From NCBI GenBank assembly GCA_963804645.1, contig CAWDRG010000017.1, positions 1 through 64,000 of the forward strand: a stretch of 64,000 nt of DNA, in the 5' to 3' direction. Within the stretch, counting starts at the first letter, position 1; every line of letters starts with the position of its first letter. Below, piece by piece: positions 4,019-26,912 of this stretch. The translations under genes were made by a program, and so were the position numbers. The DNA is from an uncultured Bacillota bacterium (GTDB taxonomy: Bacteria > Sysuimicrobiota > Sysuimicrobiia > Sysuimicrobiales > Segetimicrobiaceae). The notes beneath the pieces are model-generated. The model was not told the DNA's origin and ran no database searches. It saw only the letters and a list, made by a program, of their open reading frames with translations.

Positions 4019-4311
4019 CAAGCCCCCTCACGTTTGACGGTGTGGATGAGACCGCGCACCCTGGCAGCGTTCGGTGCCGGGTGTTCGGTCGGCATCGTCA
4101 GCCAGTCATCCGTCAGGAAAGACGCGCCGCCACCGCGCCTGCGAGTGCGACACCGTGGGAGTCAGGAGAGAGCACGACCATCGCGCCCGCCGGAGACCGC
4201 CGCGAGAACTCCACGAGGCATGCCGGAGGAATGCCGTGCGAATGAGCGCCGCAGGCAAGTCGGAGCGCATGGCGCTCGTGGACCACCGGCTGAGGGGGCA
4301 GGTCGAGAAAC

Positions 4312-4908: not shown

Positions 4909-5655
4909 CTGCTCGCCATCGTACTGATAATCTCCAGCACGTCCCCGGGCGACGCGCCGAATGCGTCGCTCCGCTCCAAGAGATGGTCGAGTTCCTGGAT
5001 GTCGAGTCCCTTACGGGCCATGCCCTCTCACCCGATCGGTCTCATCGCGTTGGCGGCCTGTGCCGCAGCCTGTCACCTAATGGCAACGACAACGTCCACG
5101 AGCGTCTCATTGGCTGAGGTACTGTTTCGAACCCTCCGCGACCTACGAACGTTGTGGGCGGCCCGCCGCTACTTGCGCTTTCGCAACGACGCATACCCCT
5201 CCTCATGGTAACGTGGCGGTATCACTAGCCGCGCCGATCGACCAGGCGTGCGAGACGGTTGTGTGCCTGGAAGGCGTGGGCGAGATGATGCGCGTGGACC
5301 CGTGCCGGCGCTACTGCTGACCAGGGTGATACTCGTGTGGCCCGCTGTCGGGTGTGTCTCTGTCGGCGCACCCGACACCGGGGGCCTCTGCGAAGGTCAC
5401 CACCCGCGATATGACCCCGTGCCGTCCGTTGTCGACCACGTCTCTTGGTACGGTCCATGGTCGTGGCCACCGAGGCGGACAACAGCGCCGAGGCACAGGT
5501 TGCCTCGCGCATGCGGTTGATACTGTCAACAGTCGTCGGTGGCGCCGTTGGATCGTTCGACGCTGAGGAAGCGGAGGCAAGATTGGAATCCTCCCGGCTC
5601 GGGTTCGAGAGGAATTCCGGGAGAACCGATGCACCAAAGATTGAGGATGTGATCA

Positions 5656-7143: not shown

Positions 7144-7474
7144 TTCGGAATGTCTCTAGGACGGAGGCGAGCACCAACACGAGGCGCGCGCGCCCGTGCA
7201 CATCTGCAGCGGGAAGAACGGCCCGCGGAGCGCGCGGGCAGAGGAGAAGAACATAGGACCACGAGGGCAGCGGCCCCGATCACGACATCCAAACTTATGA
7301 GCCGGGGGGAAGTCGCTCATCGCTTCCTCGGCAACACTGACCGGGATCGCAATCGGGTGGGGCGCCGGGGATGGTTGCGCCGGAGTCAAGACGGGCGTCC
7401 ATTCAAAGTGGCGGTGTGAAGGCAGCGGCGATCGCAAGCCAAAGACCGAGATCGACGGTCCGACATCGCTGGAG

Positions 7475-7870
7475 GTGAGCTCTATGGCGGCAAACGATAA
7501 GGTACCGGATTATCTTCAGACGCATCAGCTACAGGCCGCGCTGTTGCGGTTCGGCATCCCGTCCGAGGTGGCGCCGCTGCGCGAGGAGGCGGCGCGGTCG
7601 GGCACCGGGCGCGCCGCGAAGACGCTCGTGAAGGAGGGGGCGATTCGCGTGACGCTGATCGCCTTGCGGCAAGGCGTGGCCTTGGAAGAGCATCGCGTCG
7701 CGGGTGCGGTGACGATCCAGGCGCTTCACGGAGCATTCAGGCTGTCCACGAACCAGGAGGCCGCCGACGTACACGCCGGTGAGCTCGTGGTGCTCGACAC
7801 CGGGGTTGCGCACGCCGCGCACGCGCTCGAGGACTGCGCCCTCCTCTTGACTGTGGCGATGGCGAGATAG
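7475..7870 (+). CDS. cupin-domain protein
   Basis: GRAAKTLVK…LEEHRVAGAVTIQAL…GVAHAAHALED. Confidence 0.75.
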   Translation: MSSMAANDKVPDYLQTHQLQAALLRFGIPSEVAPLREEAARSGTGRAAKTLVKEGAIRVTLIALRQGVALEEHRVAGAVTIQALHGAFRLSTNQEAADVHAGELVVLDTGVAHAAHALEDCALLLTVAMAR

Positions 7871-7917
7871 CCGATCGGCCAGCGCGGCAGACGCACAGGC
7901 CACCACCGAGCCCGTCA

Positions 7918-9201
7918 TCAGCCTTCGAGCAATAACGTTTCGGGATCCTCGATCAGCGCCTTGACGCGCCCCAGGAATTGCACCGCCTCGCGTCCGTCGA
8001 CGATCCGATGGTCGTAGGTGAGAGCCACGTACATCATCGGGCGAATGACGACCTGCCCCACGCGTGCGACCGGCCGATCCGCGATCCGGTGCAGGCCCAG
8101 GATCCCCACCTGCGGCGGGTTCAGGATCGGGGTACTGAAAAGCGAGCCGAACACGCCGCCGTTGGTGATGGTGAACGTCCCGCCGCGCAGGTCCTCGAGC
8201 GAGAGCGTCCCTTGCTCGGCTCGCTGCGCAAAGTCGCGGATCCCACGTTCGATCTCGACCAGCGTGCGCCGGTTGGCGTCTCGCAGCACCGGCACGACGA
8301 GCCCGTCCTTCGCCGCGACCGCGATCCCGATGTCATAGTAGCGCTTGAGAACGGCCTCCTCGCCCCGCAGCTCGGCGTTCAGATAGGGGAACTCGCGCAG
8401 CGCGGCAACCGCGGCACGGACGAAGAACGCGGCGATCCCGAGCCGGAATCCGTGCCGTTCCTGGATCAGCGGGTTCTGGCGACGGCGGAGATCGGCGACC
8501 GCGCCCAAGTCCGCCTCGTTGAAGGTCGTCACCATCGCCGCGTTCCGCAGGGCCTCGACCAGCCGGCGGGCGATCGTCAGGCGCCGGAGCGACAGGCGGA
8601 CATGCTCTTCGGAACCGGCGGGCGCTGACGCCGGCGCGGCGGGCGGCGGTTGGTGAAGCGCGCCCTGCACGTCGTGGCGCGTCACCCGGCCGCCCGTGCC
8701 TGTCCCCGCGATGGCGCTGATGTCCACCTTGTGCTCGGCCGCGAGCCGCCTCGCCAGCGGCGTCGCCGCGGACGGACGAGCGGGAGACGGCTGGTCGGGC
8801 GGGTTTGGCGCTGCGGTCGATCCTCCGACGTCCTCGTGGAGCATGTGGTCGGGATCGACCGCGTCCCAGGCAGCGGCGGACGGTGCAGACGCTGCCGCAC
8901 CGGGGGCTGAGATCTCGCGCCGACGGTCCTGGGCGGCGGACGCGGCGTCAGGTTCCACGACGGCGGTCTCGTCAACGACGCCGAGTACGTCCCCCGGTCG
9001 AACATCTGCGCCGTCCGGCTGCGCGACGTGCGTGAGCCGGCCCGCCACCGCCGCAGTCACCTCGAAGTTTACTTTCTCCGTCTCGAGCTCGACGAGGACC
9101 TCACCGACGCCCACCGCCTCTCCCTCGTGCTTCCGCCAGTGGAGCACCCGGGCCTGGAGGACGGACTCGCCGACGGTCGGCACAACGATGTTGGTGGCCA
9201 C
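7918..9201 (-). CDS. sucB: 2-oxoglutarate dehydrogenase E2 (dihydrolipoyl succinyltransferase)
   Basis: Lipoyl domain (LETEKV), E3-binding ATPLARRLA…GTGTGGRV, catalytic [10 protein letters not shown] and YDHRIVDG. Adjacent to sucA. Confidence 0.93.
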
Positions 9202-9207
9202 GGCCCG

Positions 9208-12033: not shown

Positions 12034-12087
12034 GCACCTACTGCATCGGACCTGCCCTGAGCCCGTTACGGCCCAGGAACGACTTGG

Positions 12088-12336
12088 TCAGCGTGTGCCC
12101 TGTTTCTTTGCCGGCATCTGCCCCTTCACGATCCTAAGAGCCGTTCCCTTGTGGATCGCGACGTGCGGAGTCTTGTCACTCTGGATGAGATACTGTGGCT
12201 CGGCTGGCGAGGCGTGATGCACGTAGCCCTTGACCACAGTGTCGGCCGTGATACGCTTGATGATCCTGCCGCGCACTCGGCCGGCCTCGGAGTTCCACGC
12301 CACGTGATCTCCGATCCGGAACGTTCTCTTACCCAT
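12088..12336 (-). CDS. DUF2945 (Tudor-like) protein
   Basis: GDHVAWNSEAG…PQYLIQSDKT…AIHK. Confidence 0.8.
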   Translation of the reverse strand: MGKRTFRIGDHVAWNSEAGRVRGRIIKRITADTVVKGYVHHASPAEPQYLIQSDKTPHVAIHKGTALRIVKGQMPAKKQGTR

Positions 12337-12628
12337 GCCCTTTCTCCCGAGCCTCGCCCGCCACGCTCGCGTAGACTTTCCGGGAGCGGCCTCCAACACC
12401 TCCCCCCTACGCTGTGCGCTCTCAGTCCTCCACGACGGGCTCCATGGCCAATCTAAGACACCGTGCGCATCCGGTCGTTGCGCGAACGCAATCAGCCAGA
12501 TGCGCCTCGGTACATGCGCTGACACTGAGTTTGGAGGTCGCGGTCTCGAAGGCAGTGGTACATCCATCGGTGGAACTCAGAGATTGGTCTAGCGACGACG
12601 TGTTCGGCTGCCATAATGCGTGTTGCCA

Positions 12629-12743
12629 CCGCACGCAACGTGACGCTGGCGTGACAGCTAACGGACAGGGAGCGCTGGAACCCGTGCATTTACTGGCGTT
12701 TCTTCACGGGAAAGCGCGGGTTCAAGTCCCCCCTCCCCGACCA
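12629..12743 (+). repeat. att-like repeat copy 1 (arm motif + tRNA-Pro 3' end)
   Basis: CCGCACGCAACGTGACGCTGGCGTGACAG…ACGGGAAAGCGCGGGTTCAAGTCCCCCCTCCCCGACCA. Recurs at 14844, 16156 and 26827. Confidence 0.9.
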
Positions 12744-12861
12744 GTACGGCTGTCTACCGATCAGTACGGCTCGCGACGTAATCCTTATCTGGAGCCCGTT
12801 CGCCCATTCTTCTGGAGCCAGTTCGCGCATTCTATTGAACACCTATACCCCCCGGTCATTC

Positions 12862-13160
12862 TCACTCAATACCGCTCGAAACCGCACGATGCGTGACGCT
12901 GGCGTGACAGCCGGTCGACCAGACAAGATCCTCGGGCCATTCTACTGGCCTCACCTTGATTGTCTCAAACTTGATCGTCTCAAAGAGGTGTCCGTAGCGC
13001 TTGAGCGTAAAGCCCGGATCCGAATGACCGGCCTGTTTCGAGATGTAGAGCAGGTCCTTGCCCGCGGCAATCAGGAGGCTGACAAACTGGTGGCGCAGAT
13101 CGTGCCACCGGATCGGATGCCGCACGCCCGCACGACGCAGCGGTTCGACTATAGCCGAGG
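12862..13160 (-). pseudogene. tyrosine recombinase/integrase C-terminal fragment
   Basis: HDLRH…AGH…RYGH carries the catalytic HxxR, H and Y residues. The N-terminal part is missing. Confidence 0.85.
12882..12910 (+). repeat. isolated arm-type motif copy inside the integrase 3' end
   Basis: CCGCACGATGCGTGACGCTGGCGTGACAG matches the motif at 12629-12657 at 26/29 positions, same orientation. Confidence 0.8.
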
Positions 13161-13233
13161 GAAGCACCCGAAGCCCGGCCGAACCGGCGACTAACCTCGA
13201 TACGCCTCCCAACGCCGGTAGAGTATCAGATCA

Positions 13234-13302
13234 GCGCAAGTCGCGACCCATCGAGCGGGTGGCAAGCCTCAGAAGTGCAGATCGAACCCGATGCTGCCCG
13301 TC
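13234..13302 (+). repeat. 69-bp direct repeat copy A
   Basis: 63/69 identical to 14371-14439. Confidence 0.9.
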
Positions 13303-13557
13303 TGCCCTTTCTGGTAGGTATTCAGCATCGCATCGTACGTCACGTGAAAGTCCGCCCCATGCCACAACTGCCAGTTGAGCCGGACCCCGTCCCCCCCCGG
13401 TGTCCGCCGCGGGATTCACCCCGGTCACCGTGAGCAGCGAACCGGCCGACCCTTGCAGCGTCGCCGTGGTCGTGAATCCCGGCGTCCCAAACTCGTGCCC
13501 GTACCCCGCGTACGCCGTCCACCCGAACGTGTCGTGCGTCGGGCCCGCCAGCCGCAA
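13269..13557 (-). pseudogene. autotransporter/outer-membrane beta-barrel C-terminal remnant
   Basis: WTAYAGYGHEFG… and terminal GSIGFDLHF* (C-terminal Phe) in broken frames. Confidence 0.45.
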
Positions 13558-13587
13558 GCCTATGCAACGGGGCCTGGGTTGCGATTA

Positions 13588-13606
13588 GTTATGTCATTAT
13601 GATAAC
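13588..13606. promoter_or_regulatory. candidate operator GTTAT-N9-ATAAC
   Basis: Inverted repeat in an AT-rich stretch just upstream of the two-gene module. Confidence 0.4.
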
Positions 13607-13620
13607 CTTTATGTGTGACG

Positions 13621-13971
13621 ATGCGGCGTGACCCGAGCCTAGATGTACTGCTCGATCTCGATGGACAGGTGCTCGTGGTGGATCCCGAGGGCGGTCACAC
13701 GGTCCGGTTCGTCGTAACGCGGGTCCCGGCCTCCGCTGAGAAGCCACACGGCATTAACTACTCCCTCACGCTGCACGGACCCGATGGCGAGCGGTTGGTC
13801 GGCTTCGATAACGCACATCCGGTCGCCAGGCGGAAGCGCGCCGAACCACAGGACCATTACCACCGGGTGCGGACGACCAAACCATACGTCTACCGAGACG
13901 CGGCGACCCTTCTCGATGACTTTTGGAGCGCGGTGGATGCGGTGTTACGCGCGAGAGGAGTGATCTCATGA
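13621..13971 (+). CDS. DUF6516-like putative TA component
   Basis: PHGINYSLTLHGPDGERLVGFDNAH…DHYH…LLDDFW. ATGA overlap with the next gene. Confidence 0.75.
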   Translation: MRRDPSLDVLLDLDGQVLVVDPEGGHTVRFVVTRVPASAEKPHGINYSLTLHGPDGERLVGFDNAHPVARRKRAEPQDHYHRVRTTKPYVYRDAATLLDDFWSAVDAVLRARGVIS

Positions 13972-14345
13972 CGACGTTGAAAGTTGGCATCGCCAGTTAC
14001 CAAGAGATGAAGGCTCGCACTATGGCGGTAGCACGGGGTGAACGGCGCGGCGCCTCCGGCGAACCTAAGGTCTGGTTCACTTCGACGGAGTCCTTCGCAA
14101 AGGTTCTGTCGGCCGGCAACCGAGAGCTGTTGCGTGTCGTCGTCGAAAAAGCACCGACCTCGCTAGACGAATTGGCGCGCATGACGGGTAAGGCCAAATC
14201 GAATCTGTCGCGCACCTTAAGGACAATGGAGAATTATGGATTGGTCCAGCTTGTGCGCGGCGATCGGGGACGCGTAACACCGAAAGTAATCTATGATCGA
14301 GTGGAGTTAGACCTGCCGCTCACTGCATCACGGAAGGCGGGCTGA
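13968..14345 (+). CDS. winged-HTH putative antitoxin partner
   Basis: VWFTSTESFAKVLS…SLDELARMTGKAKSNLSRTLRTMENYGLV. Confidence 0.8.
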   Translation: MTTLKVGIASYQEMKARTMAVARGERRGASGEPKVWFTSTESFAKVLSAGNRELLRVVVEKAPTSLDELARMTGKAKSNLSRTLRTMENYGLVQLVRGDRGRVTPKVIYDRVELDLPLTASRKAG

Positions 14346-14370
14346 CCCCGAGGCCCAAACGTACTGTACC

Positions 14371-14439
14371 GCGCAAGTCGCGACCCATCGAGCGGGCGGT
14401 AAGCGTCAGAAGTGCAGGTCGAGTCCGATGCTGCCCGTC
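14371..14439 (+). repeat. 69-bp direct repeat copy B
   Basis: 63/69 identical to 13234-13302. Encodes GSIGLDLHF* on the minus strand. Confidence 0.9.
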
Positions 14440-14620
14440 AAGCGCTCGCGAATTTTCCGCGCCGTCCAGCTGGGGTGCTCGCGCTTCACATTGAGAATGT
14501 AGTTCTCGACTTGAACGGGCAGTTGGTTGGCGTAGCGAATCGGATGCCGGCTGCGGTCAGTGAGCCCGTGCATGCCGCAGTCCTGATACTGATCGAAGAG
14601 CTTGTAGCCGGTCTTGCGGG
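14440..14620 (-). mobile_element. IS481-like transposase N-terminal fragment
   Basis: RKTGYK…GLTDRSRHP…ANQLP…EHPSWTARKIRERL. No DDE domain or element ends visible. Confidence 0.7.
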
Positions 14621-14843
14621 ACCTCCAGGATCTGCTCGGAACAGTATTAAAGATAGGTTGTTTGCAACTTCGGACAAATCGGGCGGCGGCCCGATTTCTA
14701 CTGCTTCGAGATAACCAATATCTGCTCGCCGCCAACAGGGCGGGGTTCCGTATCGTGGGATCCAGCATGCGCTGGATGTTGGGCGTCGGAGGTGATGCGA
14801 GATGCTGGAAATCGCGGCGGCCATTTCATCAAGCGTATCGCCG

Positions 14844-14957
14844 CCGCACGCAACGTGACGCTGGCGTGACAGTTAAGGGACCGGGTGCTCTGGACTCCGT
14901 GCAATCACTGACGTGTTCTGACGGGAAAGCGCGGGTTCAAGTCCCCCTCCCCGACCA
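14844..14957 (+). repeat. att-like repeat copy 2
   Basis: Identical 29-bp arm motif and 27-bp ACGGGAAAGCGCGGGTTCAAGTCCCCC block. Ends CCCCGACCA. Confidence 0.9.
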
Positions 14958-15012
14958 CTACGGCTTCTATCGGTCGATGCTGCTCACGACGGTCAGCAAA
15001 CGCTGCCTAACG

Positions 15013-15573
15013 TCAAATCGGGATGGCGGCGAGCTCCTCGCGAGTGAAGCGCCGTACATATGATGACACGACCTCAACGCGGGCGGCATGCCGTGTGAAG
15101 CACACGGCACAGGCATATTGCGAGGCCTGCGCCGAAGGAACGATGAGGACATCTACACCCGCGCGGCAGGCCGCGGTGCCGACCAGAATGGCGCGGGCAT
15201 ACCCGGCCCCCTCATCCAGGAGATGGGAGATTGGCCACGGCAAGCGCGCAGCGACATCGTCCAACCGCACGACCTGTTGGCCGGTGATCCGCAGGTGTGC
15301 GACCCGAAAGGTCACTGGGTCGATGCCCGGTCGGAGGTGATCCGCCGCCTCAACGATGGCCACGGCATCCGTAGCCGCGGTATACAACGCTTGGGTTTCA
15401 GCCGGATGGTGCCAGCGTCCCGCGTAGCGTTGGCTACGGGCGCTGGAGATGGGATCCAGAGGCTCCTCGACGCACCGCCACATCATCACCGTCAGGGCGG
15501 CGCGGGGCGCCGCGAGGAAAACATCCTGTAGCCCGCCGAGATAGCGCGGGGCGCGATCGAGGCGGATGTCCAC
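15013..15573 (-). CDS. RES-domain toxin
   Basis: WR…GRW…ALYTA…IVE…LIVPS gives the R-E-S residues. Abuts the upstream antitoxin. Confidence 0.8.
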   Translation of the reverse strand: MDIRLDRAPRYLGGLQDVFLAAPRAALTVMMWRCVEEPLDPISSARSQRYAGRWHHPAETQALYTAATDAVAIVEAADHLRPGIDPVTFRVAHLRITGQQVVRLDDVAARLPWPISHLLDEGAGYARAILVGTAACRAGVDVLIVPSAQASQYACAVCFTRHAARVEVVSSYVRRFTREELAAIPI

Positions 15574-15948
15574 TTATGTCAGGCTGTCACCGTTCGCGCG
15601 AAGCTGCTGGAGAAGTTGCGTGATTCCACCTCGACGGTGGACCAAGTCGATCGGGCTGCCCCCGCGTCGCCGCGGCGTCGCAGCCCACTGTCGGAGGGAT
15701 CCGTAGGGGACCTGATCGAGGTACCCCATGATCTCGTCGATCACCCCAAGCGCCATGCGCACGCCACGCGTCGCGCGTTCCCGATCGACGTCCCCGGACT
15801 CCACGCGTTCCCACGTCCGCACCGAAATCGCCGTGAGGATGGCAAGCTCTTCGTGGGTTAGGTCGAAGAGCTTCCGGAACGCTCGAACGAGCTCTTGATC
15901 ACGCGTAGTCAGTGCAGGCATCACCGGCGCCTCCTCTACGAGAAGCAT
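15574..15948 (-). CDS. Xre/MbcA-like antitoxin
   Basis: HTH LTHEELAILTAISVRTWERVESG plus a C-terminal W..TP….G.SPIDL pattern. Confidence 0.7.
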   Translation of the reverse strand: MLLVEEAPVMPALTTRDQELVRAFRKLFDLTHEELAILTAISVRTWERVESGDVDRERATRGVRMALGVIDEIMGYLDQVPYGSLRQWAATPRRRGGSPIDLVHRRGGITQLLQQLRANGDSLT

Positions 15949-16155
15949 ACCAACATGGCGGGTTTCCCGTCAAGACGCCGCGCGGTCACCGAAACTCACC
16001 GCCCCGCCAGTCTCGAGCGCCACAAGAGGGCCCATCGAGAGAGAGGGAAAATGGCTGCGTGGCGCCAGGTCCCACCGTCGGGCGCGCACAGTTGATTCCC
16101 AGACATCCGCATCGGGACGAACATCGCGCACTGTTGGTGCGAGTGCGCGCTACCG

Positions 16156-16270
16156 CCGCACGCAACGTGACGCTGGCGTGACAGTTAGAGGACCCGGCAC
16201 CCTGGACGCCGTGTAATTACTGGCGTTTCTTCACGGGAAAGCGCGGGTTCAAGTCCCCCCTCCCCGACCA
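16156..16270 (+). repeat. att-like repeat copy 3
   Basis: Identical arm motif and core. Ends CCCCCCTCCCCGACCA. Confidence 0.9.
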
Positions 16271-16305
16271 GCACAGCTCTCTACCAGTTGTGCTGACTAC
16301 ATCCT

Positions 16306-16527
16306 TCAGGGCGTGTGTGCTCTTATTCTCTTCGCGAGTAACTGCCCTAGCTTTTGTCCATGTCCTTTCCAAGCTCCAGGATGGTTTCTCACGGTTACCA
16401 GTTTTTTGGTCGTGGGGTGTTGGAAAGTGAGATGACCGCCCTTGGTTCGTATCAAGACATAGCCCTGCTCTTTTAACTGGTCTATGTAGGCTTTAGCCTC
16501 CTTGGTTACCTTGATCTTGCTTCCCAT
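16306..16527 (-). CDS. HicA-family toxin-like protein (no HicB seen)
   Basis: 73 aa, basic. LKEQGYVLIRTKGGHLTFQHP…VTV..H. Low-GC gene. Confidence 0.7.
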   Translation of the reverse strand: MGSKIKVTKEAKAYIDQLKEQGYVLIRTKGGHLTFQHPTTKKLVTVRNHPGAWKGHGQKLGQLLAKRIRAHTP

Positions 16528-17249
16528 GCTAAGGCTAGTGGTTTTCTCTTCGCGCTAACAACCCTGCCTGCGCAACCAGTCGGAAGCGACCATCCTCATC
16601 GATGCACGTAGGCCACCGGTACTCACCCTGTCTCGCCCGTCCAGTCCACCGCGGACAGTCCGGTGGATCTCGACCCCTTCGGCGCCGTGGGCCCCGGGAT
16701 CCCGTCACTAATCCACCGGCCTCCCGAAGCATCCGGTGCATTTTGCGATCGTGACTACGGCGTAGCGTGTTTGTTCCTATGAACAGCGTCGGATGCATCT
16801 GATCGATTCACGGCTACGAACATCATCAAGTGCCTCGAGGCGAGCGGCGCCGGCCGAGCCGTCGCTCCGCCGGTTGAGCTGGACGTGAACATATCGCCGA
16901 CCGAGCAGCCAGATGGATGAGCTCGTCTCGTAAACGTCCACGATTCGGGTGGGCAGCGGCCAACAGAGCGTCCGTCGGCGCAGCGTCGGGCCCGCGCCAG
17001 GATTGTCAATCCAGTGTCGGCCCGATGGCACCGTCGGCGCAAAAGGCACATGCTCCATCATAAATGTATTCGAATCCGCCGGAAAGAAACGGGCAGCCGG
17101 GGACGATCGGACTGGCCTTTCTCAACGCGGCGCTGCGCGGGACGCTGACGCGCGTGTCGCGACGCTCTCCATCCTGAACAGGCTCTCTGAGCCTAGTCGA
17201 ACAGGACCGCTGCTGAGCATGCGGCGAGTGTGTCCTAGGGAGGGCAGCT

Positions 17250-18695
17250 ATGAGGAATCCGCAGAGGCCCACAGCAACGATCAAGAGCGACGAGCATGTG
17301 GTTGGCACGGTCGAAGGGCGGCATTCCGTTGCGCACGTTACTGTGCGACCAGGCCGCAAGGAACGTCGCGCAGCGGGCAAGGCCTTGCGGGACCGTGTGC
17401 CGCATGAGCAGCATCAAGAGTGGTCACCACCGAGGAGTCGCCGCGATCCGGTCGATTTGGTGATCGAGTCGAGCCAGGGCCGCATCCCAGACCTCATCCC
17501 CATCCGCTACGGCCGCATGATGGCGTCGCCGTTCACCTTCTATCGGGGCACGGCGAACATCATGGCTGCCGACCTTGCGGCGACACCGGTGACGGGCCTC
17601 TCCGCGCAAATCTGCGGCGACTGCCACGCGCTCAATTTCGGTGCCTTCGCGACCCCCGAACGCCGTTTGATCTTCGATCTCACCGATTTCGACGAGACGC
17701 TCCCCGGCCCGTGGGAATGGGACGTGAAGCGGCTCGCGGCGAGCTTTGTCTTTGCGGCGCGATCGAATGGATTTTCCGCCGCCGACCAGCGAGATGCGGC
17801 ACTCGCATGCGTCCGGTCGTATCGCGAGCAGATGGCCGTCTACGCCGACATGCCCGTCCTGGACGTCTGGTACGCGCGCGTCGATCGTCGTGGGGCGCTG
17901 CTAGCGAGCCGCGACGAAACCACCGCGGCCCGTATAGAAAAGCGCCTCAAGAAAGAGGCCGCGCGCGATTTCGCTCGTGACGGCTTTCCGAAGACGATCG
18001 TGACCAACGACGGTGCGCACGTGATTGCCGAGAATCCACCGCTCATCTATCACCATCCGCTCCTCGACATGGCGTCCAACCGGGAGCTCATTCACGAGAG
18101 CTTCACCCACTACCGAGAGGCCCTTTCGGATGACCGCAAAACGTTGCTCGACCACTATCGGCTCGTTGACATTTCACTGAAAGTAGTCGGGGTCGGGAGC
18201 GTGGGCACATTTTGTGCCATCGTGCTGATGATGGCCGAGGATGATGATCCGCTGTTCCTGCAGGTGAAAGAAGCAAGCCCATCAGTCCTGGAGCCGTACG
18301 TGGGCAAGAGTATCTACCCCAACCATGGGCAGCGAGTGGTGGTGGGCCAGCGACTGATGCAATCCGCGAGCGACGTCTTCCTGGGTTGGACTGAGACTCG
18401 GAGGGGGCGACAGTATTACATCCGCCAGTTGCGCGACATGAAAATCAAGCCACTGGTCGAGCAATACAGTCCGGGGGTCATGGTTGATTTCGCCGGGATG
18501 TGCGGCTGGACGCTCGCGCGCGCCCATGCGCGCTCGGCCGATCCGGCGATGATCGCCGGGTATCTCGGAAAGAAGGACCGATTCGACAAGGCCGTCGCGC
18601 GGTTCAGCGTCGCTTATGCTGATCAGGCCGAACGCGACCACGCGGCATTTATGCGGGCCATTCGCAAGGGTCGGATCAAGGTTCAGAAAGGTTAG
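17250..18695 (+). CDS. DUF2252 family protein
   Basis: PIRYGRM..SPFTFYRG, CGDCH..NFG, DFDE, KVVGVGSVG, LQVKEA, RQLRDMK. Confidence 0.92.
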   Translation: MRNPQRPTATIKSDEHVVGTVEGRHSVAHVTVRPGRKERRAAGKALRDRVPHEQHQEWSPPRSRRDPVDLVIESSQGRIPDLIPIRYGRMMASPFTFYRGTANIMAADLAATPVTGLSAQICGDCHALNFGAFATPERRLIFDLTDFDETLPGPWEWDVKRLAASFVFAARSNGFSAADQRDAALACVRSYREQMAVYADMPVLDVWYARVDRRGALLASRDETTAARIEKRLKKEAARDFARDGFPKTIVTNDGAHVIAENPPLIYHHPLLDMASNRELIHESFTHYREALSDDRKTLLDHYRLVDISLKVVGVGSVGTFCAIVLMMAEDDDPLFLQVKEASPSVLEPYVGKSIYPNHGQRVVVGQRLMQSASDVFLGWTETRRGRQYYIRQLRDMKIKPLVEQYSPGVMVDFAGMCGWTLARAHARSADPAMIAGYLGKKDRFDKAVARFSVAYADQAERDHAAFMRAIRKGRIKVQKG

Positions 18696-19379
18696 GAACG
18701 GGCTCCTCCGGGGCCCGCGATGAAGGAAACTAGGGACACTCCCCCAACACCAGCGCAGGTACACTTGAAAATGAGCCGAACCGCCAAAACGCGCGTCCAG
18801 TTTGTACCACGTATGGAAGTCAGCGACGTCGTTGCTGTTGGGTTCAACGACGCGATAACCATTCCACCCCCTCAGACTGTCACGATGGAATCGGCCGCAA
18901 AACCTCTTTCCAGAACTACCAGGAGAGCTTTGCCTTTGACGCTATGGTCGATTGAGAGCATTGCATCATGACAATGCTACACTGTCGAAGCCGACGATCT
19001 CAACCGACCGAGAAACCGCCGGTACGCTTAGATCCCCGGAAGACAGCAGACGAGACCGCGCGCGACAGACAACCGTGGTCACGCTCGCATCGACAACTTG
19101 TTGGCGGGACACAGAACTTGGTCCATTGTGAGACGCTGACGCCGGCGCTCGCGAGGAGCTACCGGGCGCCGTGGACGGTTCACTTGCGGGCAGCCAGAGT
19201 CATTTGAATGGACTTGCCATAAAAGTAACCTATCTGTTACACCCATACTGCTGAACGCCCTGGGTAGCTAGCAGCGACAGTCCCAAACGGTGGAAACGGT
19301 GGCTTGGCTGGGGAGTGCCTCGCCTCGGTTTGTTATACTTATTGGCATGAAATGGGCGAAGCGACGGGGGTTAGCAGAA

Positions 19380-19621
19380 TGAGTGCGGCAAAGGGCACGG
19401 TGCTGGAGTTCACCACCCAGATGATGCCAAGTGGGCCACTAACCTTCCCTGCGGAATTCGCTACATGGTGGCGGGGAGAATTGCCGCCTGGCCAAGTGGG
19501 TCGGGTAATGGTCGTGGTCATGCCTGCTGGTGAGGACGAAAACGAATCAGCGTGGCATCACACGGCAGGACTACAACTGGCGCGACTGTCCGATGCCGAT
19601 CTAGTTGCCCAGGAGCCCTAG
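19380..19621 (+). CDS. putative antitoxin upstream of PemK-like toxin
   Basis: Small ORF whose TAG (19619-19621) overlaps the GTG of the reconstructed toxin. Confidence 0.5.
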
Positions 19622-19642
19622 TGTCAATCCAGTATCGTCTAG

Positions 19643-20969
19643 CAGGCGCGGAAAAAACGTGTTTATGACGAATCATCGTGCCTGGTTCGAGAGTGATCAT
19701 GCGACCTGAAGCTCCGCGGAGCTGCTTGCGCGAGTTCCGCGCGCTCGGTGCGACCTCGCCATCGCACCGAGGGGTGGCATCCTCATGCGAGGGCCTGTTG
19801 GAGATAGAGGATCCGCACCAGGTTGTAGATCGCACACGCAAACACGAACATCGAGTGCACGCGGTGGGTGCTGCGATGGTGCAGCTTGCGCATCAGCGCG
19901 ATGGTCTTCAGCGAACGAAAGATTTCTTCCACGCGCTTGCGGATGCGTTGGCTGATCTCATAGCCGGGGTGCCGGGTGGTCCGCAGATCGACGGCACTGC
20001 GCCGCTTGCTGGTGTTTTGGGCAATGTGCGGTGTGACGTCCAAGTCGCGCAGCGCTTGGACGAATTCCGGCGTGTCGAAGCCTTTGTCCGCGCCGACAGT
20101 CACGCGGCGCTCGCCGGCCACCTGCTCGAGCAGCTCTTCCGCGGTGTCCCGTTCCGCGGTGCGCGTCGCCGCGGTCGCTTGGGCCCGCACCACCAAGCGA
20201 TTGCGGTTCTCCATCAGCACATGGCCCATATAGTACAGCTTCGCTTCCCGGCCGTGGCCTTTGCGCTGCAAGCGCGCCTCGGGATCAGTAGTCGATTGAT
20301 GCGTGGCATTGCTGCGGTGTTGGCTATGAAAGTTGACGGTTGGGTTCCCCGGATCATCCGGCGGCGGCTGGTCGGTCGGGTCCTCGTCCTTGGGACGAAA
20401 GCTCTTCAGGCCCGCCAAGGCTTCAATCAGCGTCCCGTCGACGGTGAAGTGTTCCATCGACAAGAGGTAACGCTCCCGCGCTTGGGCCAGCACGCGCGTG
20501 AAGAAGGCTTGCGCGATATCGCTATCCAGCAGGCGCTGACGGTTCTTCGTGAACGTCGTCGGGTCCCAGACCGGCTCGTCCATGTTCAACCTGACGAACC
20601 AGCGGAACAGCAAGTTGTAATACAGTTGCTCCATCAACTGCCGCTCACTGCGCACCGTGAAGAGCACCTGCAGCAGCAAGGCCCGCAGCAGTTTCTCCGG
20701 CGGGATCGAGGGGCGGCCAATCTGCGAATAGAGTTTGGCGAACGTGGGCGACAACTCATGCAGCACCGCGTCCACCATGCTCCGGATCACGCGCAACGGA
20801 TGGTCCTGCGGGACGCGCGCTTCCGGGGAGAGGTAGCTAAACATGCCTTCCTGCTGCCGATCGTCTCCGCGCATCGTGGTACCTCCGAGGGAGGAGTACG
20901 AATGAGGGTGCAACGCGACAGAGTATCATTCTATATGAACATCCAAATACCTGCTTTTTCATCATCCTG
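19643..20969 (-). mobile_element. IS5-family insertion sequence
   Basis: CTAG duplication at 19639-19642 and 20970-20973. Imperfect TIRs CAGGCGCGGAAAAA / CAGGATGATGAAAAA. Confidence 0.88.
19783..20874 (-). CDS. IS5-family DDE transposase
   Basis: MRGDD…GRPSIPPEKLLRALLLQ…RSERQL…VDGT…GADKGFD…RKRVEEIF…YNLVR. Confidence 0.92.
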   Translation of the reverse strand: MRGDDRQQEGMFSYLSPEARVPQDHPLRVIRSMVDAVLHELSPTFAKLYSQIGRPSIPPEKLLRALLLQVLFTVRSERQLMEQLYYNLLFRWFVRLNMDEPVWDPTTFTKNRQRLLDSDIAQAFFTRVLAQARERYLLSMEHFTVDGTLIEALAGLKSFRPKDEDPTDQPPPDDPGNPTVNFHSQHRSNATHQSTTDPEARLQRKGHGREAKLYYMGHVLMENRNRLVVRAQATAATRTAERDTAEELLEQVAGERRVTVGADKGFDTPEFVQALRDLDVTPHIAQNTSKRRSAVDLRTTRHPGYEISQRIRKRVEEIFRSLKTIALMRKLHHRSTHRVHSMFVFACAIYNLVRILYLQQALA

Positions 20970-21385
20970 CTAGGCGCCGTGATCACTTCGATAATTCCAG
21001 GCGTGAAAGACACGAAAGCGCGTCCCGCAGTTGTTCTCGCCGACCTGGGAGATGACGACCTTATTGTCGCCCCGATCACTAAGATGGGGCCGAGGAGTGC
21101 CTACGACATTCCGATAGCTGGATGGAGAAACGTCGGCCTCCAAATGCCTTGCTACGCTCGAGCGAATGAGCCCCCTGACAATCCAAAAGGCAAATGTGAG
21201 CTTAAGAAGGGAGGATTAGTGCGGGACTACACTGATCTTGACCACCTGACCCGCGAGGTCGAGAAGCACCTACTTTCAACTGTTCGGGAATTGGTGGTTC
21301 GGCGTGGCATCGGTCCGGAAGCGGGAAGCTCAAGCGCGCAGGAGCCTATAGTGGGCCGCCGCGAGCGGCTGGAGGGGATGCGCCG

Positions 21386-22867
21386 ATGACACCGCTGCTG
21401 TCCGTAGAGGGATTGGCCGTACGGCCGCGCTCCGTCGTCCAGATCGACGGCGCCGAGGTCGGGATGGCCCGCGCCGACGGGGGCGACCGGCTGGCGGCGC
21501 TCGCGCCGGCCCGGCCGCCGCGCCTCGCGGGGCTCGAGGGCCAGGCCACGGAGGCGGCGGGACGATGGCTGCTGGTGGGGCCCGCCAGCGACCACAACCT
21601 CGGCGTCCTGCGCGGGCTGCTCCCGTGGCTCGTGCCCGAGACGCTCGCGCTGCGCCCGTCCTTCGGCTTCGGCGACCGCCTCGGCCTCGCCACGCCTGGC
21701 CACATCCGTGCGCTGCGCGCGGTGGACGGGCGCCTGGCGCCGATCTTCGCCCAACAGTCGATCCGCGAGATGGAGCGCACCGGCCGCGATCCCGCGCGCG
21801 TGCTGGCGGACGCAGCGTGGGGCGTGTTCGCGGAGGGCTGGCGCGACGGCTTCGGCGCGGACGCCGACCATCTCAAGACCACGGCCGACGTGGACGCGTG
21901 TCTTGCGGCGGGGTACACGTTCTTCACGTTCGATCCGGGCGCGCACGTCGACCCGGCCGGCGACGCGCTGGAGGCGGACGCGCTCGCCGCCGCGCTGGCG
22001 TCGCTGCCGTGGACAGAGCTCGAGGACACGCAGGCCGCGATGCAAGGGCGCTACCGGACGCTGTCGCTCGACCTCGGCGACCGGGCGCTGCGCGTCGGCG
22101 AGGACGACGCGGCGCGCGCCGCGGTCAAGTACGGCCGCGCCGTCGCGCACGTGGCGCGCCTCCACCGGCACCTGCGGGCGCGCGACCGGCGCGTCGAGGT
22201 GGAGGTCTCCGTGGACGAGACCGACACGCCGACGACGCCCGCGCAGCACGTGTACATCGCCACCGAACTCCGCCGCCTCGGCGTCGATTGGGTGAGCATG
22301 GCGCCCCGCTTCGTGGGGCGCTTCGAGAAGGGCGTCGACTACCTGGGCGATCCCGCCGCGTTCGAAGCGGACGCCGCACTCCACGCCGCGATCGCCAGAC
22401 GCCTGGGGCCGTACAAACTGAGCCTCCACTCCGGCTCCGACAAGCTCAGCGTCTACGCGGCGCTGGCCCGTCAGGCCGGCAGCCTGCTGCACGTCAAGAC
22501 GGCCGGCACGAGCTACCTGGAGGCGCTGCGCACCATCGCGCCGATCGACCCGGCGCTCTTCCGCGAGATCTACGCGCTCGCGCGCGAGCGGTACGAGCAC
22601 GACCGGGCAAGCTACCACGTGTCCGCCCGGCTCGACCGCACCCCGGAGCCCGCCGCCGTGCCGGACGCGGACCTCGCCGGGCTGCTGGACAGCTTCGACG
22701 CGCGGCAGGTGCTGCACGTCACCTTCGGGTCCGCGCTGGCGCGGTACGGCGGCCGCCTGATCGCCGTGCTGCGGGCCCACCCGGAGGCCTACGAGGCGAC
22801 GCTGGAGCGCCACTTCCTCCGCCATCTCGTCCCGCTCCTCCAGGCGACGCGGGAGGCGCGGCGATGA
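21386..22867 (+). CDS. uxaE: tagaturonate/fructuronate epimerase
   Basis: SFGFGDRLGLATPGH, AQQSIREM, GADADHLKT, EVSVDET, SLHSGSDK, HVKTAGTSYLEALR. Confidence 0.88.
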   Translation: MTPLLSVEGLAVRPRSVVQIDGAEVGMARADGGDRLAALAPARPPRLAGLEGQATEAAGRWLLVGPASDHNLGVLRGLLPWLVPETLALRPSFGFGDRLGLATPGHIRALRAVDGRLAPIFAQQSIREMERTGRDPARVLADAAWGVFAEGWRDGFGADADHLKTTADVDACLAAGYTFFTFDPGAHVDPAGDALEADALAAALASLPWTELEDTQAAMQGRYRTLSLDLGDRALRVGEDDAARAAVKYGRAVAHVARLHRHLRARDRRVEVEVSVDETDTPTTPAQHVYIATELRRLGVDWVSMAPRFVGRFEKGVDYLGDPAAFEADAALHAAIARRLGPYKLSLHSGSDKLSVYAALARQAGSLLHVKTAGTSYLEALRTIAPIDPALFREIYALARERYEHDRASYHVSARLDRTPEPAAVPDADLAGLLDSFDARQVLHVTFGSALARYGGRLIAVLRAHPEAYEATLERHFLRHLVPLLQATREARR

Positions 22868-23120
22868 CGCGCCGACGCCGGGGATACGCGAGCGCGCCGG
22901 TGCGGATCGCCGCGCTTGTCTTCGACCGCATCACGCCGCTCGACGTCGTCGGGCCGATCGAGGTCCTCGCGCGCGTCCCGGGGCCGAGATCGTCGTCGTC
23001 GCCAGGGAACGCGGGCCGGTGCGGGACCCCCGCACGCACAGAACGCTGGCCGCGGAGGCGGCGCTCGCAGAGGTGCCGGCGCCCGACGTGCTGGTGATCC
23101 CCGAGAGGAGAGCGGCGTAG
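22864..23120 (+). pseudogene. DJ-1/PfpI-family fragment, frameshifted and truncated
   Basis: RIAALVFDRITPLDVVGPIEVL, a frameshift in the G-run at ~22981, then …PDVLVIP and a premature stop. Confidence 0.7.
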
Positions 23121-23273
23121 ATGCACCGCGTCCAGGCCGTCAACTTTTACAGGAAGACTGACACTTGACCCTGTGAACCTTCTCCGCGGCATCTATATCT
23201 TTCCCAGGTTCTATAAAGTAGTCCGGGTTCGGACAATAGGCCTTCCCCGAGGCTCGAATCGAGCGCAGGATCT

Positions 23274-23440
23274 TCACGCTTCAAACTCCTCAATATGTTT
23301 GATGATCGTATACTGATTGTATTTGCCATAAGTCATGGTCACCGGAACCTTCATCGTTCCCGGCGCGACCTTGGCATTGATGAAGAGCGGGCCGTTCGTC
23401 GCCAAAGCGCACCTAACGGCTGCGCTAAATTCCTCCACTT
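23274..23440 (-). pseudogene. C-terminal remnant of a ThDP-binding enzyme subunit
   Basis: EEFSAAVRCALATNGPLFINAKV. No N-terminal part. Confidence 0.35.
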
Positions 23441-23589
23441 GCCGGCAGCCTGCACACCGACGGAGACGCGCGTGAGCCGGTTCCTCAGCGCGTTCGATTG
23501 CGGACGCATCCGCAACGCTGAGACGGCGGAAAGCCAGTTCGGGCGACACCATTATTATGGGCCTGGGATTCGCGCTCATCTAAGAGACG

Positions 23590-23740
23590 CAGTTCGACGA
23601 ACGCAAGGGTCGCGTCATGAACCCAAGCCTCGCGGGGTACCACGTGCCCGTGCACATGGACGTGCCCGAGATCGACGTGATCTGGATCGACATCCCCGAT
23701 CCACATGCGCCGATGGGCGCGCACGGCATCGGCGAGCGCC
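23590..23740 (+). pseudogene. xanthine-dehydrogenase-family molybdopterin subunit remnant
   Basis: MNPSLAGYHVPVHMDVPEIDVIW…DPHAPMGAHGIGE. Confidence 0.65.
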
Positions 23741-23899
23741 GGACGTGGAAGTGGTGTCGGAGAAATCGGTTGCCCGGACGGCCGTGCCGAGCGTTCCGAG
23801 TCGCAGGAGGCACAAACAGGCTTTCGGGGAGCCGCCGAGAGGGCCCCGGACGGCAAAGAGCGAACCGGGTTCCACCGAGGGAAGATTATAGGCGACAAA

Positions 23900-25378
23900 A
23901 TGGAACGCCCCATACGACGGGCCCACCGGGCCCCGCAGCAGCGCGGTCGGACTGAGCCTGTACCCGAGCCACCGTTCGCGCTTCATTTCGACAGAGGCTC
24001 GCTGCGGCTGGAGGCGCCGGCCTCTGCTAAGGTGCCCGCCTATCTGAGGTGGGACGCGCGCGTGCAAGCGTGGCGCACCGAAGCGTTGCGGCATCATCGC
24101 CTGATCGACGACGCGCGCGCGTGCGGTCTGGTGATCAGGGACGAGGCCGCGCGGTTCTTCGATTGTCCGCCCGTGGCAGCCGATCTGCCGCGCCTGCGTC
24201 CGGACCAGGAGGCCGCGGTCGCCGCCTGGGAGCGAGCGGGCGGGCGGGGCGTCGTGGTGAAACCCACGGGCACAGGCAAAACCGAGATCGCGCTCGCGGT
24301 CATCGAGCGCCATCGCTGCTCCGCGCTCATCGTGGCGCCGCTCCGCGATCTCATGTATCAGTGGCACCGGCGAATCAAGCACACCTTGGGGATCGAGGCC
24401 GGCATCCTCGGAGACGGCCGGCGCGAGGTCTGGCCCATCACGGTGACCACGTACGACAGCGCCTGGATCCACATGAAGGAGATCGGCAACCGCTACCGGC
24501 TGATCGTGTACGACGAAGCCCACCATTTGCCCGGCCACGCGCTCCACGAGAGCGCATTGGACTGCCTGGCGCCGATGCGGCTCGGCCTGACCGCCACGCC
24601 CGAGCGGGCGGACGGGCGGGAGGGCATGCTCGACGAGCTGATCGGGCCATGCGTGTTCAAAGAGCACATCCATGACGCGCGGGGGCGGACGCTCGCCGGC
24701 TACTCCATCGTGCGGGTCCCGATTTATCTCTCCGAAGAGGAGCAGGCCGAGTTCGACCGGCTGTCGCGCCAGATCCGCGCGTATGTGGCGCGCCGCCGTC
24801 GGGAGGGAGGCGGATTCGACTGGAAGGAGGACATTGCCAGGCTGTCCCGCACCGATCCGGAGGCGAAGAAAATCATGCGGTGCTACTGGCGGAAGCTCAC
24901 GTTGACGCACCGCTCCTCCGAGAAGCTGCGGGTGCTGGAAGACATCTTCCGGCTCCATCCGGACGATCAGTGCGTCGTCTTCACCGCGTCCAACCGGATG
25001 GCGCTTGACGTGTCGAGCCGGTTCCTCATCCCCGCGCTTACTGCGCACTCGGACAAGCGCGAGCGGAGTTTGGTGCTGGACCTGTTTGCGCACGGACGCC
25101 TCCGGGCCTTGGCGGCGTGCGAGGTTCTCAACGAGGGGTGGGACGCGCCCGCGGTCAAAGTCGGCGTGGTCCTGGGTGGAGAGAAGGGAACGCGCGAGGC
25201 CGTGCAGCGCCTGGGGCGGCTGCTGAGGCGATCGGGGGACCGGCCCGCCCGCCTGTACGAGGTCGTGGTCGAGGAGACATCCGAGGTCAGGCGCGCCCGG
25301 CGGCGCGCGCAAACCAATGCTTACCAAGGCGCACCGCGTCTATCACTGGGACAGGCGAAGCAACTCGGTCTCTTCTGA
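23900..25378 (+). CDS. XPB/Rad25-like SF2 helicase
   Basis: LRPDQ, PTGTGKT, DEAHH, GLTATP, LNEGWDAP, QRLGRLLR. Start uncertain. Confidence 0.88.
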   Translation: MERPIRRAHRAPQQRGRTEPVPEPPFALHFDRGSLRLEAPASAKVPAYLRWDARVQAWRTEALRHHRLIDDARACGLVIRDEAARFFDCPPVAADLPRLRPDQEAAVAAWERAGGRGVVVKPTGTGKTEIALAVIERHRCSALIVAPLRDLMYQWHRRIKHTLGIEAGILGDGRREVWPITVTTYDSAWIHMKEIGNRYRLIVYDEAHHLPGHALHESALDCLAPMRLGLTATPERADGREGMLDELIGPCVFKEHIHDARGRTLAGYSIVRVPIYLSEEEQAEFDRLSRQIRAYVARRRREGGGFDWKEDIARLSRTDPEAKKIMRCYWRKLTLTHRSSEKLRVLEDIFRLHPDDQCVVFTASNRMALDVSSRFLIPALTAHSDKRERSLVLDLFAHGRLRALAACEVLNEGWDAPAVKVGVVLGGEKGTREAVQRLGRLLRRSGDRPARLYEVVVEETSEVRRARRRAQTNAYQGAPRLSLGQAKQLGLF

Positions 25379-26489
25379 CCGCCTGGAGGACGGCTGCGGC
25401 GCCGTGCTTGCGCGCGGAATCGCCGTCTACCGGACCAGGGTCGGGGACCGCCTCGGCGTCGTGCGGAACGCCGCCCGACGGGCACTTGACGGGCTCCGGC
25501 CGGATCGCGTGGAGGCCGTCGTCGATCTGCTCGACGCCGCCGCGACGTACGAGTGGCCAGCCGGCGTCCGCCAGGCCGAGCGGCGGGTAAGGGTATTCGA
25601 AGCGGCCGCGCGCCCGGTGATGGACTCGAAGACCAGGAAGCGCCTGCTCGAGGCTGAGCTCGGCGCCCCGGCAGATGGCGACGACCAGGTCACCGCCGCG
25701 CTGTACGCCGACTACCCCGAGTTCCACCGCCTGGCGGCATTTCCCGCCGAGTACACGCCGGAGGATCTGCGCGCGGCGTACGATCTCGCGCAGGCGCAGG
25801 CGCTGCTCTACGATGCCGTCGCGATCGTCGTAGAGGCCCGGGGGAACTTCAAGCACATCGTGCAGTACGCGCGGCTCTCCCGGTTGCTGCACCGCATCGA
25901 GCGCGGCCCGGGACCCGCCTACCGCCTGCGCTTCGACGGCCCGAATTCGGTGCTCCGCCGGACCCACGCGTACGGTGTGGATTTTGCGAAGTTCCTGGCG
26001 GCGCTCGTCCAGGCCCGGGAGTGGCAGCTGGAGGCCTCCGTGGCCGTGCGCGGCCGGGGGCGTCCGGCCGTGTTTACCCTGAGCTCCAGTGACGGCCTCC
26101 GCTCGAACGTCCCGCCGCCCCGTTTGTTCGACTCGAGCCTCGAGGAGGCGCTTGCCCGGAAGTTCGGCGAGGTCCGCGACGGCTGGCGGCTGCGTCGCGA
26201 GGCCGTGCTCCTGGAAGTCGGCCGGTCTCTGCTTGTGCCGGACTTCGTGTTCACGCACGATGACGGGACGGAGGTGGCGCTGGAGATCGTGGGGTACTGG
26301 ACGCCCGAGTACCTCGCGGACAAGTTCGGCAAACTCGCGCTCGTGCGGGAGACCAACCTCATCGTCGCCGTCCGCCGGGCGTGGGCGCTAAGCCAGCCCG
26401 CCGTGCCTCCGTGGGCGCTGCCTTTTCGAACCACTATTTTACTGAAGGAGCTCATGCCCCGGCTCGAGGCGTTCAGGACCGGGCGGTGA
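25317..26489 (+). CDS. DUF790 (Bax1-like) PD-(D/E)xK nuclease
   Basis: MLT…LYAD…YDLAQAQALLY…DGP.S…YG…FDSSLE…VPDF…EIVGYWTPEYL. Overlaps the helicase. Confidence 0.85.
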   Translation: MLTKAHRVYHWDRRSNSVSSDRLEDGCGAVLARGIAVYRTRVGDRLGVVRNAARRALDGLRPDRVEAVVDLLDAAATYEWPAGVRQAERRVRVFEAAARPVMDSKTRKRLLEAELGAPADGDDQVTAALYADYPEFHRLAAFPAEYTPEDLRAAYDLAQAQALLYDAVAIVVEARGNFKHIVQYARLSRLLHRIERGPGPAYRLRFDGPNSVLRRTHAYGVDFAKFLAALVQAREWQLEASVAVRGRGRPAVFTLSSSDGLRSNVPPPRLFDSSLEEALARKFGEVRDGWRLRREAVLLEVGRSLLVPDFVFTHDDGTEVALEIVGYWTPEYLADKFGKLALVRETNLIVAVRRAWALSQPAVPPWALPFRTTILLKELMPRLEAFRTGR

Positions 26490-26826
26490 TCGCGAGCGTG
26501 CCACGCCGTGGCTGCGTGCAATCCGGACGCCCATTCCCCGGTGCAGGCCGGGTCCGCGGGGCAGCGCCGCACCTGTGTGTCCGGCGAGCCGCGCGCCCGC
26601 AGCGCCGATTCCGTGCTCGCGCAGTGCCCGCGGTTCAGCCCGCCATCCACGTCTTCTTCAAAAAACTGCGGCGGCCGGTGAACGACTGCGAGTAGCCGTG
26701 GAACTTCGTGGACAAGCGCCTCGATGTTCAGCTTCGCGTACCACCACCAGTACGGCGAGTCCACCAGCAGCGTGCGCGGGATCTCGGTGTACAGGCTGCG
26801 CCGCTCGTCCAGGTTGGAGATCTGGT

Positions 26827-26912
26827 TTAGAGAACAGGGTGCTCTGGAACCCGTGCAATTACTGGCGTTTTCTCACGGGAAAGCGCGGGTTCAAGTCCCC
26901 CTTCCCCGACCA
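26827..26912 (+). repeat. att-like repeat copy 4 (outermost, lacks arm motif)
   Basis: 86 bp colinear with the other copies. Ends CCCCCTTCCCCGACCA. Downstream sequence is unrelated to copies 1-3. Confidence 0.88.

Follow-up and report, generated by a model that had tools for sequence, protein, structure and literature searches.

The window analysed here, which comprises the first 64 kb of contig C17 (from C17 base 1) of the high-GC genome assembly labelled G000 (5.3 Mb, 22 contigs, completeness 96.8%), contains four copies of a repeat unit that terminate in the last part of a tRNA-Pro gene. From left to right, they divide the DNA into segments X, A, B and C. With a probability of about 0.82, this array represents at least four small integrative elements, all belonging to one tyrosine-integrase family, which were stacked by serial insertion at the 3' end of tRNA-Pro(CGG) and subsequently decayed. 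Five observations form the basis of this reading: the identity of the repeat core with the tRNA end, an integrase pseudogene, an intact relative of the element, the loss of arms, and a variable cargo placed before a fixed flank. In the best reading, the locus is the product of accretion and of decay into remnants resembling cis-mobilizable elements (CIMEs), a known route of genome growth and not a new gene-capture machine.

According to this proposal, each newcomer would recombine at the tRNA end and push the older elements rightward, and each internal copy of the unit would consist of the right arm of one element, the core, and the left arm of the next. Copy 4, as the terminal right attachment site (attR), would be the oldest in the order of arrival that we infer. 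Deletions, an inversion and insertions of insertion sequences (ISs) would then have removed the integrases and most of the backbone, while toxin-antitoxin pairs, for which a role in retention is predicted, probably survived since their loss is costly.

The repeat unit and its four copies

All four copies lie on the + strand, and a sequence search placed them at the starts reported by the first-pass annotation of this DNA:

12629..12743, + strand: copy 1, putative internal junction; right arm of X with an arm-site pair at 12639-12655; 26-nt core at 12718-12743
14844..14957, + strand: copy 2, putative internal junction; right arm of A with the pair at 14854; core with a 1-bp deletion
16156..16270, + strand: copy 3, putative internal junction; right arm of B with the pair at 16166; intact 26-nt core, then a hairpin
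26827..26912, + strand: copy 4, putative terminal attR; arm block deleted and one core change; then host genes (FAD oxidase, M20 peptidase)

The copies showed pairwise identities of 86-90%. The 27-bp block that had been described as identical in all of them (at 12706, 14921, 16233 and 26875) proved to be the longest exact block that the four have in common, and four matches to it were reached in 0 of 100 shuffles. The core-to-core spacings of 2214, 1313 and 10642 bp were also recovered. A unit length of about 115 bp applied to copies 1-3 (114-115 bp) but not to copy 4 (86 bp), which lacks the first ~29 bp, corresponding to the arm block, and has a gene stub in its place. Copies 1-3 start with a 17-bp motif made up of two hexamers with an 11-bp period, which is missing from copy 4. 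An extra copy of this 17-bp arm block was found at 12892, within the integrase remnant described below, and in copy 1 homology to the arms of the other copies reaches left to ~12596.

The core of copies 1 and 3 was identical to the last 26 nt of the tRNA-Pro(CGG) gene present on contig C8. The earlier proposal that the units match the tRNA 3' end from the T-loop onward was right as to the 3' end, but identity starts three bases earlier. The core of copy 2 shows a 1-bp deletion in a run of C, which is also found in the C8 copy, and that of copy 4 carries a single C-to-T substitution in the acceptor strand, as first noticed. Past the CCA end, common sequence was detected in copies 1-3 and not in copy 4, in agreement with the initial description, but it spans only ~15-20 imperfect nt instead of the ~20-40 nt claimed. 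Directly after the CCA of copy 3, a perfect hairpin with a 10-bp stem was observed (16268-16295), which is degenerate after copies 1 and 2; the corresponding DNA of copy 1 (12740-12830) contains a 20-bp-period repeat of 2 units (3 in C8) and a 24-bp tandem repeat.

The whole assembly holds 6 copies of the unit on its 22 contigs, 5 of them in the array or in its C8 duplicate. The sixth copy (C4:141306-141484, locus L085) lies on the minus strand, away from any tRNA-Pro and with another downstream flank, about 0.6 kb from an oppositely oriented 3' fragment of tRNA-Arg. A ~97-codon open reading frame (ORF) adjoining this orphan unit also adjoins the arm in metagenome contig L054. The orphan is probably a nested or secondary-site remnant.

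Target tRNA, integrase family and putative arm sites

ARAGORN detected no tRNA gene in the 64-kb window, and in the whole genome it located a tRNA-Pro gene with anticodon CGG, beginning CGGGGAG, at C8:109958-110034. An intact tRNA-Pro starting CGGGGA(G/A), which the first-pass annotation had predicted to the left of the window, does therefore exist, but it is found on C8 and not on C17. The 4.2 kb that follow the tRNA up to the end of C8 (C8:110006-114252) repeat window positions 12715-15701, that is, A and most of B, and the two contigs differ exactly at the core (tRNA-core-A in C8, X-core-A in C17). Compared with the window, the C8 copy carries 24 substitutions between 12778 and 14396, and from 14397 to 15701, the end of C8, it carries none. 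Insertions of 20 bp and of 1468 bp (the latter an IS) and a deletion of 226 bp were also observed. In view of this distribution of substitutions, the C8 tail reads as an alternative haplotype (tRNA-A'-B) that joins the C17 path X-A-B-C, and less probably as a tandem copy. The ends of C11, C12 and C13 overlap other contigs at 96-99.8%, as would be expected if the bin included haplotype contigs. For the start of C17, no overlapping contig end was detected in the assembly, and the linkage of the array to the tRNA rests on the C8 tail plus synteny in the related genomes G004 and G002. In G004, a toxin-antitoxin pair located 0.7 kb behind tRNA-Pro(CGG) matches window 161-702 at 89% identity. The window gene at 28844 has two homologs in G002, one of them 47 kb downstream of tRNA-Pro(CGG) on the same strand and the other elsewhere in that genome.

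Remains of an integrase were found to the right of copy 1, in segment A, and were compared with P0001, a full-length 399-aa protein from a public metagenome:

12865..13137, - strand: 3' remnant of a tyrosine integrase (PF00589; 92% identical to P0001 residues 314-399)
13132..13182, + strand: inverted middle piece of the same integrase (P0001 residues 121-137; tblastn, 15 of 17 identical, E 1.4e-5)

The 3' remnant points toward the core, has a 15-bp internal duplication and holds the left arm-site pair of A (12892-12908). The integrase family to which it belongs (~400 aa, PF14659 plus PF00589) was detected in 22 of the 94 genomes of the order (E <= 1e-40), and a tRNA or transfer-messenger RNA (tmRNA) gene lies within 1.5 kb of the remnant's homologs at 11 of 14 relative loci. 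A scan of species-representative genomes with P0001 returned one locus, a fragment, from 83 candidate stretches. The cognate integrase beside the attachment (att) site is a pseudogene in A and is intact at the same tRNA in the relative G090, which carries behind its tRNA-Pro(CGG) an intact element of ~5.4 kb with a 422-aa integrase, a Phd/ParE pair, and pairs of 11-bp period at both ends. The family model taken from G090 is an element of about 5 kb in which the integrase adjoins the tRNA, accompanied by a toxin-antitoxin pair, a few genes and a repeat pair at each end.

No intact integrase of the family was found in G000 (96.8% complete), where the left end of X is unassembled; this tRNA-proximal end, at which the family keeps its integrase, could hold a live one. 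Among 11 PF00589 matches in G000, the family profile was strong only on the two remnants. Frames of 155 aa on C11 and of 357 aa on C15 were rejected as the cognate integrase, both being only distant to the family profile. The initial statement that most segments carry no integrase fits these results, the only gene of this kind in the array being the broken one in A.

The 17-bp motif probably represents arm-type integrase binding sites, because similar 11-bp-period pairs sit at both ends of the intact G090 element; in G079 and G052 such a pair lies at the integrase 3' end, beside tmRNA. An arm-binding Pfam domain was recognised in only 1 of 25 integrases (E 0.01), so that the arm-site role rests on position and periodicity. 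In the window, cores bound A, B and C, and the arm pair is present at both ends of A only: B has the right pair and no left one, and no pair was found within ~0.2-0.26 kb of either end of C. By analogy with CIMEs, A, or A and B as a block, could be excised by an incoming or neighbouring relative, while C is probably not excisable.

Across the order, the arm 17-mer matched in 10 of 94 genomes (5 for the reversed control). Of 10 sites outside G000, four precede a tRNA/tmRNA-type core and one lies beside a Pro core on the other strand; the remaining five look like chance. The arm precedes a tmRNA core in G006 (L034 12479-12584) and other tRNA-type cores in G014 and G007 (L069, L070), which suggests one arm specificity combined with different target genes.

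Terminal flank, segments and cargo

The host flank downstream of copy 4 recurs behind the unit in G004 (L031) and in metagenome contig L057, where the terminal unit has an intact arm and other cargo lies upstream; the cargo before the terminal unit differs among G000, G004 and L057. The junction pattern was present in 6 metagenome contigs, of which L057, L058 and L059 are terminal, with the unit truncated in the latter two as it is in the window, and the other three are other junctions with other neighbours. This common flank supports the first-pass assignment of copies 1-3 as internal junctions and of copy 4 as terminal attR, and the core, the integrase remnant and the intact relative support the broader claim of att junctions formed by serial integration at the tRNA-Pro 3' end. 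In L057, ORFs with E1_FCCH repeats (3080-6134) precede the intact terminal unit; they may be phage-like cargo or reflect a chimeric assembly.

Decay at this tRNA was also evident in the C8 copy, from its 226-bp deletion and IS insertion, and in G004, which shows a truncated core and a 28-bp integrase scrap. In G004 (L032, L033) there are two copies of tRNA-Pro(CGG), and part of the cargo is duplicated over three contigs, which suggests a strain mixture at the same hot spot. Behind the same tRNA, the same-genus genomes G001 and G006 have one copy of the unit each, and none was found in the retrieved DNA of G002 and G003.

Besides the junctions and the integrase pieces, the following features were recognised:

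1..12628, no strand assigned: segment X, left end unassembled (Pfam, NCBIfam, tblastn)
13615..14345, + strand: TumE-family toxin and helix-turn-helix (HTH; HVO_A0114-like) partner, segment A (PF20126, PF25212)
14406..14768, - strand: IS remnant with IS481-like N-terminus (Pfam; genome self-comparison)
15013..15948, - strand: RES-domain toxin and Xre-like antitoxin, segment B (PF08808, weak PF20432; NF049844 below cut-off)
16271..26826, no strand assigned: segment C, with DUF2252, an IS5-family element (19634-20979), uxaE, an XPB-like helicase plus DUF790, and a gene stub

Segment X spans at least 12.6 kb and encodes a Phd antitoxin and a ParE/RelE-like toxin at 138-756, as well as a Crp regulator, an AlkA-like glycosylase, DUF488, a cytochrome b561/molybdopterin oxidoreductase, a cupin, sucB-sucA and an Hva1-like protein. 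Window 7918-12033 within X (70% GC) contains the only sucA match in G000, together with sucB and the Hva1-like gene. The sucAB/Hva1-like block of 4.4 kb has a counterpart in G002 (87%), and the retrieved part of the contig carrying it contains no tRNA. A central-metabolism operon within an island could anchor X.

Segment A measures 2.1 kb. Judged by its domains, its TumE/HTH pair is probably a type II toxin-antitoxin pair; homologs of it lie 0.06-0.53 kb behind other tRNAs at 3 of 4 relative loci, with no P0001 match there. A 69-bp direct repeat (91%; 13234-13302 and 14371-14439) brackets this pair, and its left copy falls within the stretch deleted in C8. Positions 14433-14621 are 91-92% identical to four other sites of the genome. 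Segment B (1.2 kb) has the RES/Xre pair as its only recognised genes, and none of the 3 Xre-RES loci retrieved from relatives lies just downstream of a tRNA. Segment C (10.6 kb) ends in a frameshifted 3' gene stub (26624-26826, - strand) which abuts copy 4. Its XPB-like helicase and DUF790 pair (23705-26489) has 72-76% homologs in several family members, and no tRNA was found near the homologs in the 3 loci retrieved. Toxin-antitoxin pairs are thus present in 3 of the 4 segments, which share almost no internal sequence with one another.

This array is not the only one in the genome. A copy of the 3' end was found elsewhere for 19 of the 52 tRNA/tmRNA genes of G000, with some matches shared between isoacceptors, and same-orientation stacks were detected for tRNA-Thr (5), tmRNA (5), initiator tRNA (fMet; 4) and tRNA-Lys (3).

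Alternative explanations and known systems

Several points weigh against a stack of formerly autonomous, now decayed elements. The stretch between window base 1 and the tRNA is not assembled, and a tblastn search found no integrase remnant in X, B or C; for this reason, the past autonomy of these three segments is something that we only infer. The difference between C8 and C17 falls precisely on the core, which implies that a site-specific event took place fairly recently. Furthermore, the ~90-bp arm was kept at 86-90% identity while the backbones vanished, which could reflect selection on the junctions.

The first-pass annotation had proposed an alternative, an integron-like platform served in trans. 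Integrons are defined by the integrase IntI, an attI site, a Pc promoter and cassettes with attC sites. The array resembles them in that small units, of which several carry toxin-antitoxin pairs, alternate with related recombination sites. However, these sites consist of a tRNA core and arms and not of folded attC hairpins: none of the 8 strands tested folded better than shuffles (z from -0.99 to +1.01; an attC covariance model was not applied). Neither is the integrase IntI, since three full-length homologs reached only 38-39 bits with the IntI model TIGR02249, whose cut-off is 265. Nor are the units co-oriented single-gene cassettes; the window's genes point both ways, with the cargo of A on the + strand, that of B on the - strand, and X and C mixed and multigenic, and the units hold debris.

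A maintained platform of this sort, in which integrase-less units would be captured, excised and reordered by a family integrase, either supplied in trans or encoded in the unassembled end of X, is an unlikely explanation. It would account for B, which is just a toxin-antitoxin pair between two junctions, for the cargo differences before the terminal unit and for the C8/C17 difference at the core. It would also gain from the close full-length integrase P0001 in a public metagenome, from the 17-bp arm before tmRNA, Ser-type and Pro cores in relatives, and from the recurrence of stacks at many tRNAs of G000. However, every unit would have to keep conserved arms and an integrase would have to be permanently present, and we disfavour this reading because neither was seen: A alone keeps both arm pairs, cores 2 and 4 are mutated, and the assembly contains no intact cognate integrase. 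The array itself is missing from the same-genus genomes G001 and G006 and from the retrieved DNA of G002 and G003. Reads from four runs of one study, taken as contigs and possibly the window's own source, gave no circle or core-to-core joint among the 15 of 28 joints listed, which at a depth of ~4 is not evidence of absence. A joint at 16184-26840 in X2 was rejected as excision of C, given that the 13 letters lying between its two parts match the terminal arm that is intact in another strain, represented by L057. The claim of a platform served in trans was consequently not supported: A has its own integrase pseudogene, relatives harbour autonomous elements, each with an integrase, at this tRNA, and the lost arm pairs of B and C, the gene stubs and IS remnants, and the lack of integron hallmarks also oppose it.

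In a broader and equally speculative version, which we put forward with little confidence, tRNA 3' ends of this lineage would serve as a distributed store of reduced, toxin-antitoxin-stabilised units that retain att junctions and would be added, removed and reordered by a roaming integrase family with a shared arm and an exchangeable core. This would amount to integron-like behaviour without attC, and the C8/C17 difference would be one event of it, with the integrase residing in the unassembled end of X or in the population.

It is very improbable that part of the array arose not by four independent integrations but from one element end that underwent tandem duplication or homologous recombination and then had its cargo replaced. 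Arms as close as 86-90% and the repetition of A and most of B at C8:110006-114252, taken as a second chromosomal A+B, would be expected from such an origin. However, the segments have almost no internal sequence in common, and the substitution pattern of the C8 tail fits merging haplotypes, as do the similar overlaps at other contig ends. Finally, a miniature inverted-repeat transposable element (MITE) or repetitive extragenic palindromic (REP) sequence carrying a tRNA fragment can hardly be entertained: the minus-strand copy on C4 recalls one, but this reading is largely refuted by the low copy number (6 in all, 5 of them in the array or its duplicate), by the lack of terminal inverted repeats and of any significant fold, and by the link to an integrase, and in relatives the core changes with the target gene while the arm stays.

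A prophage or phage-satellite origin found little echo either. Phage structural, replication or packaging genes were absent among the Pfam matches of the window (PHROGs not scanned), viral contigs gave 0 matches to the arm or junction pattern, and the integrase had a single distant match among them (26%, from 18 candidates).

The preferred reading, a decayed stack of integrative elements, agrees best with CIMEs, several of whose known traits are seen in the array: integration and transfer genes are lost (no intact integrase of the family was found in the window or the assembly, where the left end of X is unassembled, and no relaxase or conjugation domain among the 48 window ORFs scanned with Pfam), internal junctions are chimeric, and a terminal attR is followed by host flank. 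CIMEs and tandem accretion are defined for islands related to ICESt1/ICESt3 of Streptococcus thermophilus (PMC5704250), and the route of decay and accretion is described there and in PMC3146451. In that model, an element integrates behind the 3' end of a target gene and decays, and a relative then integrates there in turn, so that elements deprived of their integration and transfer genes but still provided with att sites are stacked and joined by chimeric junctions (PMC5704250). The array resembles it in the loss of these genes, the stacking and the chimeric junctions. In contrast, the stack here comprises four members of one family instead of two, neither the window nor the intact G090 element has a recognised conjugation or relaxase gene, and the att arms of B and C are damaged, so far as the putative mobility of the segments is concerned.

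Similarly, the ssrA islands of Dehalococcoides are tandem and bounded by ~20-bp copies of the RNA-gene 3' end with conserved upstream sequence, and 15 of them, which have no integration module, were suggested to be CIMEs (PMC3146451). Several module-less tandem islands behind one RNA gene and a conserved sequence upstream of the core are thus common to both systems; the Dehalococcoides islands, however, use the serine integrase DsiB, a six-gene module and tmRNA as target, whereas a tyrosine integrase and tRNA-Pro(CGG) are involved here. The islands collected by Islander have a tRNA gene and a same-orientation 3' fragment as ends, as the array probably does with the tRNA of C8, and they likewise show a crossover class at the T-loop/T-acceptor and a tyrosine integrase, but an integrase per island and a size of at least 2 kb are required (PMC4383910), so that the present segments would be filtered out. 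According to the same source, only 4 tandems of three or more occur among 3919 islands. Tandem SXT/R391 arrays and their instability are treated in PMC5812530. For the locus itself, a search at the level of titles and abstract openings, in a collection lacking most subscription papers, returned nothing.

The array illustrates clearly how elements accrete at a tRNA hot spot. Island finders which require an integrase skip arrays of its size and type, and it reveals how the att sites are built in a tyrosine-integrase family present in about a quarter of the genomes of the order. As a decayed tandem island it matters little; if integrase-less units proved mobile in trans, the many similar stacks of G000 would constitute a working gene-shuffling system.

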